64,000 nucleotides of DNA from Fidelibacterota bacterium (GTDB taxonomy: Bacteria; Fidelibacterota; Marinisomatia; Marinisomatales; TCS56): positions 1 through 64,000 of the forward strand of contig JBDRBK010000082.1 in assembly GCA_043822705.1 (NCBI GenBank), given 5' to 3'. The position numbers are program-made. Positions 12,001 to 24,000 of this stretch are shown here, piece after piece. Position 1 is the first letter of the stretch. Every line of letters starts with the position of its first letter.

Positions 12001-15000
12001 TGGATCGCCGTGGATGCCTTCGTTACCGAGCATATTTTCTACGGCTTGGCCGAAGGTGCACATATATTTTATGTGCGTGCCGTTGATAATCTGGGAGCCG
12101 TCGATAATTCTCCGGCCCAGAGCGCATTTGTGGTCAAAGCCGGCAGTCTGCCCATGCTGATCAGCACCAGTCCGATTGTTGACGGTGGCGGCTGGTTTGC
12201 CGGGCTGGACGTCGCCTTCTCATGGGAAGTCAATGTTGATTATTACGGCGGTCAGCTTCCTGAAGGGTATGCCACTTTTGCCCTGGACGACTCGACCGGC
12301 TGGAGCGACAATCAGGCGAATATGCAGTACAGTTGGCGGGGGGCTACCGCGTTTGAGATCCTTGGATCGAATCTCGGTTCCGGCCAGCACACTTTTTACG
12401 TGAAAGTCCGCGACGCCCAGTATCAGGTCAGTAAAATGTCGATCAGCTTCTCGGCCGCGGCCTATAATCCCACCAGGAAAATCCTGGTGGTCAATGGTGT
12501 CGCAGACAGTTATTTTGACGAAATCACCAGCATGTACACCGATTCGGTATACTGGGGCGGTCTGGATCTGGCCGATATCTATTTCTGGGATCTGTTTGGC
12601 AGCGGTAGTGCTCCGGCGATTTCCACCATGCCAACCGACAATTATCTCGGTGGCGGTGGTCCGGTGACACCGGATATCCTGAGTGATTTCGAATGCGTGA
12701 TCTGGGCCGGCAACGCATTCAGTGGCGACCTTGAGTTATGGCAGTTGACACCGATTTATCCCTATCTGCTGGCTGGTGGCAATGTTTTCCTGGGGGCTCG
12801 TTATACCGACCAGTTCTTTACGCCTGAACTGGAGGCCTATGCCCAGGTCGCCTGGCGGGAAACGGAAATTTCCCTGCTTGAATTCGAACCGATGTTCCCG
12901 GGATTGGTTGCCTGTACACCGTCCGGGGCCTCGCTGACCAGTGTTTTTTCAAGTGGCGGTTTTGATTCCGGTGGCAGCCCTGCCGACGATGATGTGACCA
13001 ATTACGACGGATCGCGCAGCTATACCAAAGCCTCAGGTACCAGCACCCTGCTGTTCGCCCATCGCACGAGTGCCGTGATCGGCAGTTTTGGATATGTACG
13101 TGGCTGCGGCGTCTGGTCGCATCCGAATCTGGATTACAGCAATGACCTGACCCAGGCTACGCTACCAACGACGGGTACCCTGGAGGCAAAGGGTAATTTT
13201 GTATTCCTGTCGGGTCGGCACTATCGTTTCGATCATGATGAATACAAAGCCAATATGCGTTATATCATCACCAGCATATTTGCTATCCAGTAGCTGCAGA
13301 CAAATTGTAATGAGTAACCATACTAATGTCACAAGGAGGCAAAATGGTTAGAAGATTTTTTTCTCCCCTGGGAGTAATAGCGATCCTATGGCTTTTGATC
13401 ATAGGTTGTGATTCATTCCTCAATCCGGAGGATGAATCGACGGTACCGGAGCAAGCCGCTATCGTACTGAATACTGACATTATCGAAGGCCCGGCCAATG
13501 CTGCGACGTTGATTTACAATTCATCGCCTACCTTCAAATGGAAGGGCAGCGTCTATCCCGGCTACGTAGCCGGCTTCCAGTGGACCCTGGATATGGACGG
13601 CGAAGCCTATGAACAATCCGAGGATTGGACGATGCAGATGACCCAGACCTTCAGCAATCTGTTGGAAGGTGACTACCTGTTCACGGTTTGGGCCAGGGAT
13701 GACAAGGACAGTGTGGAGGCGACACCGGACAGCGTCAGTTTCGCGATCGGCGCGGCTGACGCCACTGCTCCCGAAATCCGCTTTACACAAAGCCCTACTG
13801 ACAATTCCTACCGGGCACCGGGCAGTAACATCTTTTTCGTGTGGACGGCCAGTGACGAATCGCCGTTTGGCAGCGTGTCGGGCTACAGTTATCGTCTGAG
13901 CGGTACCGGCGCCAGCGCCACCGCCTGGACCGCCTGGAGCCTGAACACGACTTCTGCCGTATTCGAAGACCTGCAAACCGGTGATTACGTCTTCCAGGTC
14001 AAAGCTCGTGATAATTCAGGACTGGAATGCGCGCCTTATGAAATTAACGTCACGGTAAAAGCACCAACGATTCTGGTGGTCGATAATTACATCCCCGGCG
14101 ATTCACCGTTCCTGAATGAGATTGCGACGGATGAGATCATTGGTTCCGTGTTGCGGGACTGGTCCTGGGAGGAATGGGACGTGGATATCAATGGTTTGCC
14201 GACGGCTGCCGATCTGGCGGGTTATTCATCGGTGATCTGGTATGTTGACGGCGACCCCATGGCCTTCTTTTATTATGGAGATAATACCATCGACAATCCG
14301 CTGGATGATTTCCTGGACGGCGGCGGCAACCTGTGGTTGATGGGCAGCGAGATTCTATTTTACACTGAGTATGTGGATACCGCTGCTTTTGACACCGGTC
14401 ATTTTCTCCGCGATTACCTCCATCTGACCGGTGGCGGTGATGCCGGCGATGATGCCTTTAGCGGCCTGACTTCGATCGATGTCGATGGCTTCACTGAAAT
14501 TGGAATTCCCGGTCTGGCGACCGGAACGGGCTGGCCTGATGCCCTGGTCCCGGACGATGATCCGAACACCGTCGCCATTTATGACCTGGGAGGTTACGAC
14601 AGCGGCACGACCGCCGGCGTAATGTATGACGGACCGGATTTCAAAACCGTGTTCTGGTCCGTGAACTTCGCGTTTTTGGCTACCAACCATAATCATCTCT
14701 CTCTGTCCCCTGGTGATCTATACCCGGTAGCCAATCATATTCTTGGGACGATCTTTGAAGAGTAATATTCAAAGTACCATAATGAGGAGCACAATGAAAA
14801 AAATAAAATTCATCAAAGCAGTCTTATTATCGCTGACCCTGATCTTGTGGTCGACATCGTTATTCGCTGTAACGACTGGTAAAATCACCGGTTTAATTAA
14901 GGATAGTGAGACTGGGGAAGTATTGGCCGGTGTAAATGTCCTGGTCGATGGTACCAGCATGGGTGGTGCCAGTGACATCGATGGCCGCTATTTCATCCTG

Positions 15001-21000: not shown

Positions 21001-24000
21001 AGGAGTTGGTCAATTTGGGTTTTGAAATGCGCATGGCGCAGATGGTTGCCCTGCGTGCCGGCTACAAGATCGGCGTGGATGAGGGCGGCTTGACGGCCGG
21101 TGTCGGACTGAATCTGCCCTTCATGGGCACGGCTATCGATATGGCCTACAGCGCTTTTGGTGAACTGGGTAATGTTACCAGAATATCTTTAGGTATGAAC
21201 TTCTGATCTATACTTAATCGATCCTCGATTAGCTGATAGAAAAAGGGTGATATGGCGCTATCACCCTTTTTTCTTTTTCCCAAAGGATGATTTATTAGTC
21301 GGAAGCGTTCGGACATATTTTTATATTCGGGACGGAAGTGTTATGAATTGAAGACACTGACTGACCAAACCGATCAGTGCCTGGCAGTCCGCCAGCAGAA
21401 AGGAACAGCCAATGCGTCCAGCAGTCAAATTTCTGTCGAATGAGTTAATCGAAAAAATTTATGGTGAGAGTATCCGGGTGCTGGAAACGCTCGGAATCGA
21501 AATCCGTTATAGCGCAGCCCTGGATATTCTGGCCGCCGCCGGTGCCGCCATCGACCGGGAACATTGCCGGGTTAAAATACCCGAGCAACTGGTGCGGCAG
21601 GCGGTCGCATCGGCACCGTCGTCCTTCGGTTTATACGATGTGCTGGGTAACCAGACCAATCATTTCGCCGACGATCGGGTGCATTTCACGCCCGGTTCGG
21701 CCGCCCTGAATATTCTTGATCATGCCACTGGAACGGCCCGCCGGCCGACTTCCGCCGATTATGTCGATTACGTCAAAGTCATCGATCGACTGGATAATAT
21801 CGCCGCCCAGAGTACCGCCCTGATTCCCGATGATGTGCTGGACCCGGTTTCCGACAGTAACCGGCTTTACCTGAGCCTGCTGTTCGGCGAAAAACCGGTC
21901 GTGACCGGTACCTTCAGCGCCGCCGCTTTCACGGTGATGCTGGATCTGCAACTGGCCGTCCGCGGGTCCGAAGCGGCCCTGCGCGAAAAACCGTTGACGG
22001 TATTTTCCTGTTGCCCGACTTCGCCGTTGAAATGGAGTGAGGTAACTACGCGGAATCTGATTGACTGCGCCCGTTATTCGATCCCGGTGGAACTGATCGC
22101 CATGCCGCTGTCGGGATTCGTCGCGCCGGTGACGCTGACCGGCTCCCTGATTCAGCACAGTGCCGAGAACCTCTGCGGGCTGGTCCTGAGTCAGTTGGTC
22201 AATCCCGGTACGCCGGTTCTGTACGGCGGTTCCCCGGCCGTTTTCGACATGCGCTACGAAACGACGCCCATGGGCGCCATCGAGACCATGATGATCGACT
22301 GCGCCTACAATGAAATCGGAAAATACCTGGGACTGCCGACCCAAGCTTATATTGCCCTCAGCGACGCCAAACTGCTGGATGCCCAGGCCGGGCTGGAAAC
22401 CGGCATCGGCGCCTGCCTGGCGACGTTATCCGGGATTAACAGCCTGTCCGGTCCCGGCATGCTCGATTTTGAGAGCTGCCAGAGTCTGGAAAAGCTGGTG
22501 CTGGATAATGAAATCGCAGGCATGTGCCTGCGGCTGGCCCAGGGGATCACCCCCCGCGATGATTTCCCGGCCATACCACTGTTAGAGGAACTAATGCGGT
22601 CCGACCACCTGTTGATCGCCGAGCATACCATGCGTTATCTGCGCCAGGAGCATTATTTCCCCGGACCGGTGATCGATCGGGCCAACCGGTCGCGCTGGGC
22701 GGAGGAAGGTCATCAATCCCTGGGTGACCGGGCGCACCGGGAAGTCCGGCGACTGATTGCCGAATACCAGCCTTCACGGTTGCCGGAATCGGTCAAACAC
22801 GACCTCCGGGAGCGGATGACCGCCGAGGTGCGCAAATACGGCGGCAGTCTGCCTCCGCTGGCCGGAACCTGACCGGTGGACAATATTCTTCAATTTGACC
22901 TGACCGCCCTGACTCCGGCGGATCGACAGGTGCTGAGTCAGCAGGGAATACCGGCGGACTGCGCCATCTCGCCGGCCGTTCAGTCATTGTTGGACCGGGC
23001 CAAAATTATTTATCGGCGAACCGCTCACCCGGCTGGTCTGCAGGAAGTAATTACAGCAGTTGATTTTGGCGCTGTTTTTAGCGGGGAGGGGGATAATGAC
23101 CCAGAAGCGCCGCTGTCACTGATTTTTCCTCAAGCCCGGAATCTGGCACTGTTCGCTATCACATTGGGGCCGAAAATCAGTGCGGCAATCGAAGCACTGT
23201 TCAACGATGGCGACTTTGCCCTCGGTTACATGCTCGACACCATCGCGTCACTGGCCGCCGATGAAGCTGTCAATCTGTTGGAACAACAATATGCCCGGAC
23301 TGACACAATCGCCGGCGATACAGCGCTGGCCTACAGTCCCGGTTATTGCGGCTGGCATATCAGCGGTCAGAAAAAGCTGTTTAGTTTTCTGCAACCGGAA
23401 CGGATCGGCATCAGGCTGAACGAATCCTGCCTGATGCAACCGTTGAAATCAGTGTCCGGCGTAATAGTGGCCGGTGAGAAGAAAATTCATAAATTCAAGC
23501 CGGCGTTTGGGTTCTGCCGCAGTTGCCGAACGCATTCATGCCTGGCCAGATTTAACACATTGAACACCTAAATCAAAAGAACCTGACCAATGGAAATTCT
23601 AAATCAACTAACCGCCGCTCTGCAAATAGGGGCTGATAAAACCGCTGCTGAACTGACAACCAGAGCCCTTGAGGACGGACTTACACCAGGGGAAATTCTG
23701 AACGGTGGATTTATTGCCGGAATGAACGTGATCGGAGAAAAATTCAAGCGCCATGAAATCTTCCTGCCGGAAGTTTTGCTGGCCGCCCGGGCGATGCAGG
23801 CCGGGATGGATCTGCTCAAACCGCTACTGTCACAGTCGGACCAGCGGGGATTAGGCACTGTGGTTATTGGCACGGTAAAGGGTGATCTGCATGACATCGG
23901 TAAAAATCTGGTCGGTATTATGCTGAAAGGCGCCGGCTTCGAGGTGATCGACCTGGGCAAGGATGTGGCACCGGAGAAATTCATCGAAACCGCTGCTGCC

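Follow-up and report, generated by a model that had tools for sequence, protein, structure and literature searches.

A repeated cassette encoding a TonB-dependent transporter, a T9SS-tailed secreted protein and a PorV-like barrel in a Fidelibacterota genome

Five genes and a terminator-like hairpin at 11467-21272 of the window (the whole 64,000-nucleotide stretch that was analysed) can be read, with about even confidence, as one operon for an outer-membrane nutrient-capture complex. An unannotated secreted protein of ~700 aa, labelled MID here, would be retained on the PorV-like barrel of its own cassette, near a TonB-dependent transporter (TBDT). All annotated parts of the three units in the window lie on the forward strand.

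Organization of unit 1

Unit 1 begins with two cassette lipoprotein genes, paralogue A (11467..13293, 608 aa; lipobox FWGC followed by an acidic stretch) and paralogue B (13326..14765, 479 aa; two Ig/FN3-like domains and a GATase1/ThuA/GIFT-like domain). These are followed by a cassette-subfamily TBDT (14794..18090; signal peptide, CarboxypepD_reg-like N-terminal domain, plug and barrel), MID (18097..20205, a 702-aa ORF whose database form starts at 18118 and has 695 aa) and a cassette-subfamily PorV/PorQ-family barrel of the 14-strand type (20229..21206), the predicted holder of the MID tail. The five genes are co-directional, with gaps of 6-32 nt in the ORF calls. The genome-wide survey's note had described a trio of TBDT, secreted protein and PorV-like barrel at 14794-21206; ORFs, spaced by gaps of 6-28 nt, and profile matches confirmed these three genes, but the trio proved incomplete, the unit lipoproteins having been overlooked in all three window units. 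The hairpin (21239..21272; 14-pair stem, then a T-run) lies 33 nt past the barrel gene and probably ends the operon. This end is drawn from its position and its stem, the longest within 10400-27600, and not from the number of terminator-like sites in that interval, which is not raised (17 observed, 16.6 in shuffles).

The TBDT, read with a signal peptide from its start at 14794, matched Pfam PF00593 (74.5 bits) and CarbopepD_reg_2 PF13715 (54.7 bits), and its profile matched both plug and barrel of solved TBDTs (E 1e-17 to 1e-23). It would act as the import channel. The SusC/RagA model TIGR04056 gave 74.7 bits, where 368 are needed. Eleven members of the cassette TBDT subfamily were found in the genome at 484 bits or more, the next scorer having 337 (own ORF calls and jackhmmer), and all 11 adjoin a MID or sit within about 5 kb of one.

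The ~480-aa lipoprotein family that includes paralogue A is present in 50 of 66 related loci, and its lipobox Cys is invariant (alignment A4). In a locus labelled Melioribacter roseus, the gene that immediately precedes the cassette TBDT is a relative of paralogue B (BLASTP E 1e-11); paralogue B also scores 37.9 bits with Pfam Y_Y_Y. Its AF2 model (pLDDT 77.7) resembles PKD/FN3 domains over residues 145-246 (Z 11-12); over residues 247-479 it resembles 2gk3 (Z 15.8), a GH42 trimerisation domain (Z 15.3) and ThuA-like proteins (Z 15.0). Both lipoproteins of unit 1 are encoded upstream of its TBDT; units 2 and 3 each carry one inside the unit. The cassette lipoproteins may be the real SusD/SGBP-like partners, and one or two of them, with their acidic post-Cys stretches, would form further surface parts of the complex.

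Genes downstream of unit 1

The genes at 21412-27310, past the hairpin and a gap of 205 nt, are MttB-family, corrinoid-protein, MetH-activation-like, homocysteine S-methyltransferase and URO-D-like. Unit 1 might serve these corrinoid-dependent methyltransferase genes, for example by importing quaternary amines or corrinoids, and L002, a 75%-identical locus, retains part of the set. However, L002 is without the MttB and corrinoid-protein genes, and at a 65%-identical orthologous locus (L001) the genes are unrelated and lie on the opposite strand, with no methylamine cluster. The hairpin and gap intervene, an Rfam search of the window for riboswitches found none, and a 700-aa surface partner is more than small solutes require. 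A service to these genes is thus very improbable. The methylamine genes downstream of unit 1 lie beyond the hairpin and lack conservation at orthologous loci.

The MID protein

MID is laid out as a signal peptide, a galactose-mutarotase-like supersandwich (about 18250-19512), an FN3 domain (about 19525-19812) and a PorZ-like, variant T9SS C-terminal domain (CTD; about 19891-20202). A Pfam/NCBIfam scan of the unit 1 protein gave nothing above cut-off, only sub-threshold T9SS tails: Por_Secre_tail (16.9 bits against 27), TIGR04183 (20.6 against 23) and the PorZ C-terminus (19.5 bits). In the AF2 model (pLDDT 78.5, pTM 0.71), residues 44-462 match the N-domain of glucoamylase 1LF6 (Z 18.1, 232 aligned residues, rmsd 3.0), which reproduces the predicted fold noted earlier, and the N-domains of GH116 and glucodextranase (Z 18.1-18.2). 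MID thus shares the fold of galactose mutarotase and of the N-terminal supersandwich of GH15, GH65, GH94 and GH116 enzymes (Z 18.1-18.2 over 232-274 residues), but at 7-13% identity, without an (alpha/alpha)6 or other catalytic domain, and with an Asp-rich insert in the supersandwich, after which come the FN3 domain and T9SS tail.

In the supersandwich, several acidic and aromatic positions (E39, E74, D85, D175, D263, W55, Y173 and W199, fragment A5 numbering) show conservation of at least 90% even among very divergent members, deep paralogues included. This agrees more with a shared structural, metal or catalytic site than with binding of a specific substrate. The same residues favour a MID that is itself an enzyme within the same architecture, a surface glycanase, lyase or epimerase trimming polymers for the transporter. 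Catalytic supersandwich domains do exist, and structural neighbours of the model include a GH174 endo-fucanase (Z 13.7 over 230 aa), a PL26 lyase (Z 13.6) and aldose 1-epimerases (about Z 12). The top matches (Z about 18), however, are non-catalytic N-domains of GH15, GH116, GH94 and GH65 enzymes; a catalytic Pfam domain was found in none of the 44 members scanned, among 150 matches listed; and the conserved motifs rich in Asp may just as well be Ca2+ sites. An enzymatic MID is therefore considered unlikely. Binding of glycans by MID is suggested by its fold and by the context of some paralogues. The survey's proposal of a surface glycan-binding protein keeps the support of this fold and of some glycan-gene neighbours, but peptidase, peptidoglycan-amidase or unrelated genes stand beside other copies.

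The MID tail and the cassette barrel

The MID tail matches the PorZ CTD in structure (Z 11.2, rmsd 2.7, 85 aa, 25% identity) and has the type-A motifs PNP[FY], G..V, SGVY and K..V[IV][KR]. The genome encodes SprA (592 bits) and PorU (593 bits), and the T9SS-type tail proposed earlier is upheld on all these grounds. A PorU-model search of the genome found about 50 canonical CTDs; the trio-less C69_40704 was the sole MID among them. Two HMMs, one for MID tails and one for canonical tails, were built from this genome, and independent loci were scored with both. The MID-tail HMM was preferred by 103 ORFs, 97 with a MID N-domain and six that are cut MID fragments or a weak MID; the canonical HMM was preferred by 90 ORFs, none a MID. 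By sequence, MID tails form a private CTD subclass that is apart from canonical CTDs and restricted to MIDs. Two MIDs on contig C75 have the variant tail with no barrel nearby.

The unit 1 barrel scores 194.7 bits with NF033709 (cut-off 90), and falls below cut-off with the models for PorQ (81 bits; 220) and PorV (58 bits; 250). In a quick tree with several long branches, the cassette barrels fall into one group of 33 rows, of which 20 come from other genomes, 10 from cassettes of this genome and three are others, away from 11 further PorV-family ORFs of the genome; the SH-aLRT of 89 gives moderate support for a single PorV-family subfamily. At C115:878-1906, one barrel of the cassette type stands without an adjacent MID or TBDT; it precedes a LamG/PKD protein with a canonical tail.

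Complex prediction with barrel residues 24-325 and MID residues 585-695 scored 0.92 (three runs, 0.92/0.92/0.91), compared with 0.02 for the best of three controls. The 0.92 mark is reached by 116 of 157 solved complexes and two of 215 mismatched pairs, counts that hold only roughly here, where own alignments were used. At least 87% of contacts are common to the runs, and partner pLDDT is at least 76. The predicted interface comprises the conserved tail positions P601-N602-P603, L641, G643, D644, G673, Y675 and K690 and a MID-specific insert (605-613). The MID tail thus probably plugs into its cassette's own barrel. CTD/PorV-type complexes have already been solved structurally, and the score may reflect likeness to these; it speaks to binding, and neither to specificity for the cognate barrel nor to escape of the tail from cleavage. 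The dedicated PorV anchor postulated in the genome-wide survey's note gains from the private tail, the separate barrel subfamily and the predicted binding.

In passages of a review (PMC10202324), the PorZ CTD is said to stay on PorQ and that of PorU on PorV, and cognate PorV-like barrels are suggested to shield CTDs from cleavage; PorV is also described there as a shuttle from translocon to attachment complex. The cassette barrel could then be a mere private export shuttle, with PorU, which this genome encodes, cleaving the tail and MID attached to LPS or released as other type-A cargo is. The predicted interface would suit a transient complex as well as a stable one. Yet a private tail class across phyla and one barrel gene per unit are costlier than a shared shuttle requires, the MID tail resembles that of PorZ, which is retained, and the best candidate for a general PorV lies elsewhere (C70:13735-15084). 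A shuttle without retention is given a low probability. In the preferred reading of retention, MID would be exported by Sec and then by the T9SS, as its signal peptide, its CTD and the SprA and PorU genes suggest. Unlike that of ordinary cargo, its CTD would not be passed to PorU for cleavage, but would stay on the extracellular face of the cassette barrel, on the model of the PorZ tail on PorQ and the PorU tail on PorV. The supersandwich and FN3 domains would be tethered at the cell surface beside the transporter, where fold and context suggest that they bind, or possibly trim, a polymeric substrate.

Further units and their neighbours

Two more co-directional units with the TBDT-MID-barrel order follow in the window, at 27456-35057 and 34963-42276. 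Unit 2 consists of a TBDT (27456..30644), a 725-aa MID paralogue (30647..32824), a 389-aa lipoprotein (32830..33999; lipobox LLGAC, then an acidic stretch), for which no known family and no relatives among the fetched loci were found, and a PorV/PorQ-family barrel (34050..35057; NF033709 174.7 bits). Unit 3 consists of a TBDT (34963..38403), a 738-aa MID paralogue (38415..40631), a 207-aa lipoprotein (40638..41261; Cys, then DDFKDEEYE) and a PorV/PorQ-family barrel (41230..42276; NF033709 188.3 bits). The TBDT of unit 3 probably starts downstream of 34963, because its longest ORF overlaps the unit 2 barrel gene by 95 nt.

Own ORF calls and jackhmmer recovered nine complete co-directional trios, on contigs C30, C41, C51, C69, C70 (two) and C82 (three), the same number as reported before; the C107 unit is cut by the contig end and that on C16 is a rearranged variant. 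The MID paralogue family was likewise found, with 14 members counted instead of 13. The earlier figure of 12 PorV paralogues is about right for cassette-type barrels, but 24 ORFs match the PorV family in all, some of them fragments or near-identical duplicates (C160/C89, C133/C21, C16/C200). The TBDT, MID and barrel identity matrices of the nine trios are correlated (r 0.75-0.83, Mantel p 2e-4), which supports duplication and divergence of the three genes as units; such co-divergence is expected from co-inheritance alone.

GH57, TrmB and GH13 genes precede the C30 unit, and the first C70 unit (C70a) has a GntR regulator before it and a sugar ABC transporter and GH38 gene after it. Several units have non-glycan neighbours, such as M12 peptidase, alanine racemase, transglutaminase-like and Amidase_3 genes. 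The statement that glycan or methylamine genes usually follow thus holds for some units and not for others. The units that lack catabolic neighbours, which are many, would suit a surface or adhesion structure, or a TonB-type barrel used for export, as is reportedly the case for Oar of Myxococcus. MID also has modules resembling adhesins (FN3, Asp-rich Ca-type repeats), and its relatives carry BNR, FG-GAP and MAM domains. Against a role other than import, the plug and barrel are typical of importers, several units are flanked by sugar regulators, ABC importers and GH genes, and the T9SS already supplies an export route; there is little chance that the unit is not for import.

Occurrence in other phyla

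The named homologues had been placed in Fidelibacterota only, which does not hold: the full order TBDT-MID(1-3)-barrel occurs in 36 of 66 loci fetched from such phyla as Ignavibacteriota, Calditrichota, KSB1 and Rhodothermota. At another 12 a contig end falls on the side of the missing part, and six have a MID without TBDT or barrel within 8 kb although the contig leaves room. The cassette is old and spread over many FCB-group phyla, and not a Fidelibacterota invention.

Comparison with known systems

The cassette is similar to SusC/SusD (RagA/RagB) and the 'utilisomes' of Bacteroidota PULs in that genes for surface-exposed accessory proteins adjoin that of a TBDT with a CarboxypepD_reg-like N-terminal domain, and in that the unit is multiplied in the genome beside varied catabolic genes and regulators. 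It differs in that its TBDT lies outside the SusC/RagA family, that its main partner is no lipoprotein but a T9SS cargo that would sit on a protein barrel, that its contexts include non-glycan genes, and that a search of the 93%-complete genome for SusD_RagB (PF07980) found none. A SusC/SusD counterpart, as the survey proposed, is favoured by this lack of SusD_RagB and by the catabolic neighbours. The M. roseus genome paper (2013; PMC3534657), however, reports that the species has a SusCDE operon, and the cassette is present in a MAG that bears the M. roseus label (locus L013); hence the cassette is not simply a replacement of SusC/SusD.

As in the PorZ-PorQ and PorU-PorV pairs of the T9SS attachment complex, a CTD would be bound, and probably retained, by a PorV/PorQ-family barrel, and the MID tail is closest to that of PorZ in sequence and fold. 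In contrast, the cassette barrel is an ortholog of neither PorV nor PorQ, MID is not secretion machinery, a TBDT gene accompanies the pair, and a genome may have up to about ten copies. Type B cargoes with cognate PorP/SprF-like proteins, such as SprB and SprF of Flavobacterium johnsoniae, likewise have a special tail class and genes clustered with those of their own outer-membrane partners, proposed as their anchors in a review (PMC10202324). The MID tail is a type A variant, however, its partner is of the FadL-like PorV/PorQ family and not PorP/SprF, and a TBDT is included.

Conclusions

Many duplications have multiplied the unit in a genome without SusD and set its copies beside varied catabolic genes, much as SusC/SusD pairs are placed in Bacteroidota PULs. 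The cassette is a real, widespread and apparently unpublished module, which would combine two principles already known, CTD retention on PorV-like barrels and TBDT 'utilisomes'. It looks like a SusD-free way to build nutrient-capture complexes in many relatives of the Bacteroidota.

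Organization of the cassette in the window and the genome

Five co-directional genes separated by gaps of only 6–32 nt are found at 11467–21272. Two paralogous lipoproteins are encoded first (11467–13293 and 13326–14765, both +), the second directly upstream of the TonB-dependent transporter (TBDT) of unit 1 (14794–18090, +), whose signal peptide begins at the ATG chosen in the genome-wide survey's note. The TBDT gene is followed by that of an unannotated secreted protein of 702 aa with no known family (MID; 18097–20205, +) and by that of a PorV/PorQ-family barrel (NF033709; 20229–21206, +). 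The barrel gene is followed after 33 nt by a hairpin (21239–21272, +) whose stem has 14 pairs and which carries a T-run; terminator-like sites in its region are as numerous as in shuffled sequence, and only position and stem length favour this one. In units 2 (27456–35057, +) and 3 (34963–42276, +), a further small gene separates the MID from the barrel.

Open reading frames (ORFs) of the entire assembly (218 contigs with 3.34 Mb in total; completeness 93%, contamination 6%) were predicted and searched by jackhmmer with the three proteins of unit 1. Nine complete co-directional trios of TBDT, MID and barrel were found, on contigs C30, C41, C51, C69, C70 (two, C70a and C70b) and C82 (three), which bears out the repeated trio described in the survey's note. 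A further unit on C107 is cut by the contig end, and on C16 the MID comes first, followed by a tail-bearing protein, a lipoprotein, the TBDT and the barrel. The TBDT subfamily has 11 members at 484 bits or more (the next match scores 337 bits), and all 11 adjoin or are near a MID. Fourteen MID paralogues, one more than the 13 counted earlier for the same family, score at least 227 bits; the matches that follow reach at most 131 bits and are alike in the tail only. The barrel query matched 24 ORFs, some of which are fragments or near-identical duplicates. Across the nine trios, the identity matrices of TBDT, MID and barrel correlate pairwise (r 0.75–0.83, Mantel p 2e-4) at identities of only 20–50%; the units were thus copied whole, long ago. 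This correlation shows co-inheritance and is not proof of binding.

Barrel ORFs are identical or nearly so between the end of C16 and the start of C200, between C160 and C89, and between C133 and C21 (tree branch lengths 0–0.05). Probably C16 runs on into C200 and some contigs duplicate others, which fits the contamination estimate of 6% and inflates paralogue counts. The MID of C70b (C70:80689–83649, or 10690–13650 of the fetched locus L072) is broken into two ORFs, a 264-aa piece with signal peptide and N-terminal motif and a 703-aa remainder; the cause would be a shifted frame, a stop codon within the gene or a misassembly.

The transporter and the barrel

In the TBDT of unit 1, Pfam detects PF00593 (74.5 bits) and, at the N-terminus, a CarboxypepD_reg-like domain; in that of unit 3 it detects a Plug domain (31 bits). 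With a profile built from the TBDT alignment, Cir, PhuR, RagA and PfeA are matched in both plug and barrel (E 1e-17 to 1e-23), whereas a single-sequence phmmer search of PDB sequences gave no match at E ≤ 1e-3. The proteins thus have the plug and 22-strand-type barrel of TonB-dependent transporters. With the SusC/RagA model TIGR04056, the three transporters of the window score only 74.7, 59.6 and 55.5 bits against a cut-off of 368.25, and the match is limited to their N-terminal part. The SusD/RagB model PF07980 has no match anywhere in this genome, of which 93% is covered, and gave the expected positive in the B. thetaiotaomicron control. Since both defining proteins fail these comparisons, the cassette does not belong to the SusC/SusD systems.

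The three barrels of the window score 194.7, 174.7 and 188.3 bits with the PorV/PorQ family model NF033709 (cut-off 90) and are members of that family. They fall well below the models for PorV proper (NF033710, 58–73 against 250 bits) and PorQ proper (NF033711, 74–81 against 220 bits). Of all genes of the genome, C70:13735–15084 comes closest to PorV, scoring 136.6 and 53.2 bits in two pieces. In a quick maximum-likelihood tree of 44 sequences with several long branches, the cassette barrels group together (SH-aLRT 89), including 20/20 from other genomes, 10/10 from this genome and three others, namely one long branch, a C200 fragment identical to the C16 end, and C115:878–1906. Eleven other PorV-family ORFs of the genome, C70:13735–15084 among them, lie outside the group. 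With moderate support from this tree, the cassette barrels would constitute one subfamily of the PorV family.

The C115 barrel belongs to a locus (C115:878–7668, or L076) that has neither TBDT nor MID. A helical, chaperone-like ORF precedes it; after it come the gene of a canonically tailed LamG/PKD protein and one that resembles (alpha/alpha)6 glycosidases. This barrel is an exception to the rule that tail class and barrel go together.

Fold of the MID protein

An AlphaFold2 model of the MID (40-sequence alignment; pLDDT 78.5, pTM 0.71) begins with a signal helix, which is followed by a beta domain (~44–462), an FN3 domain (~470–565) and a C-terminal sandwich (~592–695); within the beta domain, an Asp-rich insert is modelled poorly. 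When the whole model was submitted to Foldseek, matches to the FN3 and C-terminal domains dominated, and the fold of the N-terminal domain emerged only from a wide structural search. The best matches of the beta domain were the supersandwich N-domains of a GH116 enzyme (7w2t; Z 18.2, 274 aa), of glucodextranase (1ulv; Z 18.1) and of glucoamylase (1lf6; Z 18.1, 232 aa, rmsd 3.0); a GH174 fucanase and aldose epimerases scored lower (Z 12–14). The glucoamylase-like supersandwich fold proposed earlier is therefore recovered in a new model.

The fold raises the possibility that the MID is a glycoside hydrolase of the families that it resembles. In GH15, GH65, GH94 and GH116 such a domain would be accompanied by a catalytic (alpha/alpha)6 domain or an equivalent, and the model contains supersandwich, FN3 and C-terminal domain only. 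No glycoside hydrolase Pfam family matched MID1–3 (the MIDs of units 1–3) or any of 44 relatives scanned out of 150 listed, and Pfam detected no catalytic domain in these 44, which carry only FN3, FlgD_ig, Por_Secre_tail (10/44), BNR, FG-GAP, Big_5 and MAM. As a catalytic domain is found neither in the model nor in the Pfam scans, an assignment to these hydrolase families was rejected.

Every named sequence among 130 database relatives of the MID is called 'hypothetical', and in the ESM Atlas the supersandwich part matched only clusters that are unnamed or labelled 'T9SS C-terminal target'. With a profile of 38 supersandwich sequences, the cluster representatives matched among 1.84 billion numbered 6141 when the limit was E ≤ 1e-3, 2778 with E ≤ 1e-10 and 564 with E ≤ 1e-30. 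Judged by these profile matches, the supersandwich domain is a large family for which Pfam has no model.

The tail of the MID and its predicted partner

The core of the T9SS (type IX secretion system) is present in the genome, with SprA (592.3 bits, or 735.1 with neighbouring in-frame matches) and PorU (592.7 bits) both over their cut-offs. With the curated models for type A tails, MID1 remains below cut-off (Por_Secre_tail PF18962, 16.9 against 27 bits; TIGR04183, 20.6 against 23 bits), MID2 is weaker and MID3 has no match. The last ~95 positions of the PorZ model match MID1 with 19.5 bits. Despite these scores, the MID tail is homologous to T9SS C-terminal domains (CTDs): jackhmmer ties it to about 70 CTD proteins, the type A motifs are retained in the alignment, and the modelled tail matches the PorZ CTD 5m11 (Z 11.2, rmsd 2.7, 85 aa, 25% identity). 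The best PorZ-like gene of the genome (C90:11659–14031; 105.5 bits, under the cut-off of 260) has a very divergent tail, and no barrel gene was seen beside it.

In the alignment the MID tails also carry an insert of 10–20 residues after PNP[FY] and an 'F.NLP' motif. Two HMMs, one trained on the MID tails of the genome and the other on its canonical tails, were used to score the ORFs of 66 loci from other genomes. The MID-tail HMM was preferred by 103 ORFs, 97 of which have the MID N-domain; the remaining six are cut MID fragments or, in one case, a weak MID. The canonical-tail HMM was preferred by 90 ORFs, none of them a MID. Within the genome the split was 12/12 against 1/79, a circular result as the HMMs were trained on these very sequences. 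About 50 proteins of the genome have PorU-like tails, and the sole MID among them, C69_40704, is not in a trio. On alignment and HMM preference, the MID tails are a private class of CTDs.

The complex of the barrel (residues 24–325, 33-sequence alignment) with the MID tail (residues 585–695, 40-sequence alignment) was predicted in three runs, which scored 0.92, 0.92 and 0.91, against 0.02 for the best of three controls. The mark used for this score was reached by 116/157 solved complexes and 2/215 mismatched pairs, counts that apply only approximately here, as custom alignments were used. The runs have at least 87% of contacts in common, and the pLDDT of the partner is at least 76. On the tail, the predicted interface includes the conserved residues PNP 601–603, L641, G643, D644, G673, Y675 and K690 together with the MID-specific insert (605–613); on the barrel, it includes the conserved N-terminal segment 28–38. 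Complexes of PorV with cargo tails have already been solved, and the high score could therefore stem from likeness to them. In the prediction, barrel and MID tail resemble a pair of PorV and CTD; neither specificity nor permanence follows from it.

Lipoproteins of the cassette

The lipoprotein genes of the units are conserved and were overlooked in the survey's note. The product of 13326–14765 is homologous (E 1e-11) to that of the gene just upstream of the cassette TBDT in a locus from a metagenome-assembled genome (MAG) labelled Melioribacter roseus. This lipoprotein family has 54 ORFs in 50 of the 66 loci, and its gene ends less than 300 nt upstream of the TBDT in 36 of the 48 loci with a cassette TBDT; in five loci it directly follows the barrel. 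In the present genome its members are limited to the two ahead of unit 1 and one ahead of the TBDT of C16. The lipobox Cys is invariant in 38 sequences of the family. A model (pLDDT 77.7) predicts two Ig/FN3-like domains and a GATase1/ThuA/GIFT-like domain, the latter matching 2gk3 (Z 15.8), the trimerization domain of GH42 (Z 15.3) and the N-domain of IFT52 (Z 14.1). The extra genes of units 2 (32830–33999) and 3 (40638–41261) also encode lipoproteins. In all four lipoproteins, two of unit 1 and one each of units 2 and 3, an acidic stretch directly follows the Cys; it is reminiscent of the surface-export signal of Bacteroidota lipoproteins.

Distribution in other bacteria

In the survey's note the named homologues of the MID were confined to Fidelibacterota, and this restriction did not hold. 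Named sources among the 130 database relatives are Fidelibacterota and Neomarinimicrobiota and also Krumholzibacteria and Zixibacteria. A search from the 18 closest MID sequences yielded at least 558 confirmed relatives, and the 66 loci kept come from Ignavibacteria, Calditrichota, KSB1, Rhodothermales, Balneolaceae, Kryptoniota, Zhuqueibacterota, Eisenbacteria and others. MAGs labelled M. roseus, Ignavibacterium album (both Ignavibacteria) and Caldithrix abyssi (Calditrichota) carry the cassette.

The arrangement of the loci was read with HMMs of the three families. A full co-directional series of TBDT, one to three MIDs and barrel is present in 36/66 loci (two tandem MIDs in 21, one in 12, three in 3). 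In 12/66 a contig end cuts the side of the missing part, and in 5/66 TBDT and barrel are present in another order or spacing. The barrel is missing from 7/66, where the TBDT is present or the upstream side is cut; in 6/66 the contig leaves room for both parts, and yet the MID has no TBDT and no barrel within 8 kb. The cassette is, by this spread of homologues, old and widespread.

A conserved protein of about 200 aa with no known family is encoded by 39 ORFs of these loci (885–1493 of L013, the M. roseus-labelled locus; L030:2481–3083; L006:2641–3255; and 36 more). Its gene lies directly upstream of that of the cassette lipoprotein in loci of Ignavibacteriota, Calditrichota, KSB1 and Rhodothermota, usually after a gene for a LamG protein with CTD, and is absent from the genome of the window.

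Genomic neighbourhood

Pfam annotation places different genes beside the different units. The C30 unit follows GH57, TrmB and GH13 genes, and the C70a unit follows a GntR gene and precedes a sugar ABC transporter and GH38. The C41 unit precedes a tailed M12 peptidase and glycine-cleavage genes, the C69 unit precedes transglutaminase-like and alanine racemase genes, and the C70b unit comes after a two-component system of the sigma-54 type. Downstream of units 2 and 3 are genes for TIG, PD40, two Amidase_3 proteins with tails, a C92 peptidase and GHL10. The cassette of the M. roseus-labelled locus is followed by genes for a DUF2961 protein and for one that is GH116/GDE-like. Co-localized carbohydrate-active enzymes with a regulator are thus present at C30 and C70a and absent at unit 1, C41, C69 and C70b. 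From these neighbours, some units resemble polysaccharide utilization loci (PULs), and others point to peptides or peptidoglycan.

Downstream of unit 1, genes at 21412–27310 (+) encode an MttB-family (non-pyrrolysine) protein, a MetH-activation-like protein, a corrinoid protein, a homocysteine S-methyltransferase, an AmiA-like amidase and a URO-D/MtaA-like protein. By annotation this run resembles a MetH-like pathway in split form that would lead from a quaternary amine to methionine. The methylamine genes had been linked to unit 1, a link that the comparison does not sustain: they lie behind the hairpin, the related locus L002 (75% identical) retains four of the six genes and lacks those for MttB and the corrinoid protein, and L001 (65% identical) has unrelated genes at this position.

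A LytTR response regulator is encoded divergently upstream of unit 1, across a gap of 853 nt, together with two histidine kinases of PF06580 (7690–10613, −). These proteins may regulate the cassette; L002 has a PF06580 kinase at the same place. An uncharacterized 890-aa DUF5916 protein (230 bits) is encoded upstream of the two-component genes (3316–5988, −). No Rfam family reached its gathering score over the whole window, and hence no riboswitch was detected. Among the sequencing runs listed as matches were five DNA runs with small word shares and no RNA run.

After unit 3, a run of T9SS-tailed proteins (42295–55749) comprises two pairs of PD40 with Amidase_3 (plus Big_5/FN3 and CTD), a C92 permuted-papain amidase, a TIG protein and, on the minus strand, a GHL10 protein with CTD. 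It could be a set for harvesting peptidoglycan fragments at the cell surface. One isolate of Fidelibacterota in the published literature reportedly depends on pieces of foreign cell wall.

Relation to known systems and significance

The cassette is real and conserved. Its units are multiplied in the genome as SusC/SusD pairs are, and by analogy it may work like a SusC/SusD system. SusD has a TPR-type fold, whereas the cassette lipoproteins are predicted to have an Ig–Ig–GATase1-like fold. The cassette is not strictly a replacement of SusC/SusD, because the M. roseus genome paper also reports a SusCDE operon in that organism (PMC3534657).

The anchoring principle itself is already known from statements in a review: the tails of PorU and PorZ are retained, with the former protein seated on PorV and the latter on PorQ, cognate PorV-like barrels may shield tails from cleavage, and type B cargo genes cluster with those of PorP/SprF (passages of PMC10202324). 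What appears to be new is a third class of tail with its own barrel subfamily, tied to a TBDT and lipoproteins and multiplied. A cassette of TBDT, T9SS-tailed protein and PorV-like barrel was not found described in searches of openly accessible full texts, and the passages found of the genome papers on M. roseus (PMC3534657) and C. abyssi (PMC5317091) do not mention it.

The best reading, about as likely as not, is that the MID serves a TonB-dependent importer as a surface partner, assembled by the T9SS and anchored by the barrel. A broader model is put forward tentatively, with the chances somewhat against it. In those phyla of the FCB group that are poor in SusD, among them Fidelibacterota, Ignavibacteriota, Calditrichota, KSB1 and Rhodothermota, the T9SS would build nutrient importers besides secreting enzymes and adhesins. 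The private tail would dock the supersandwich protein on its private PorV-like barrel, beside the TBDT and the surface lipoproteins, as a protein-tethered lid or catcher that is equivalent to SusD in function and independent in origin, with the supersandwich domain recognizing the substrate.

The cassette is a genomic marker for PUL-like loci beyond Bacteroidota, and experiments should be possible, since it occurs in MAGs labelled with cultured species (M. roseus, I. album and C. abyssi). If the model holds, the idea that cognate barrels protect CTDs, as worded in passages of PMC10202324, would become a testable sequence rule of variant tail plus cassette barrel. A working function would then be available for a large unannotated domain family (6141 or 2778 representatives, by threshold) and for a conserved lipoprotein family. 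The T9SS would gain a new role in building uptake machines, and lineages that are abundant but little understood (marine and subsurface Fidelibacterota/Marinimicrobia, Ignavibacteria, Calditrichota and KSB1) could capture polymers without SusD.
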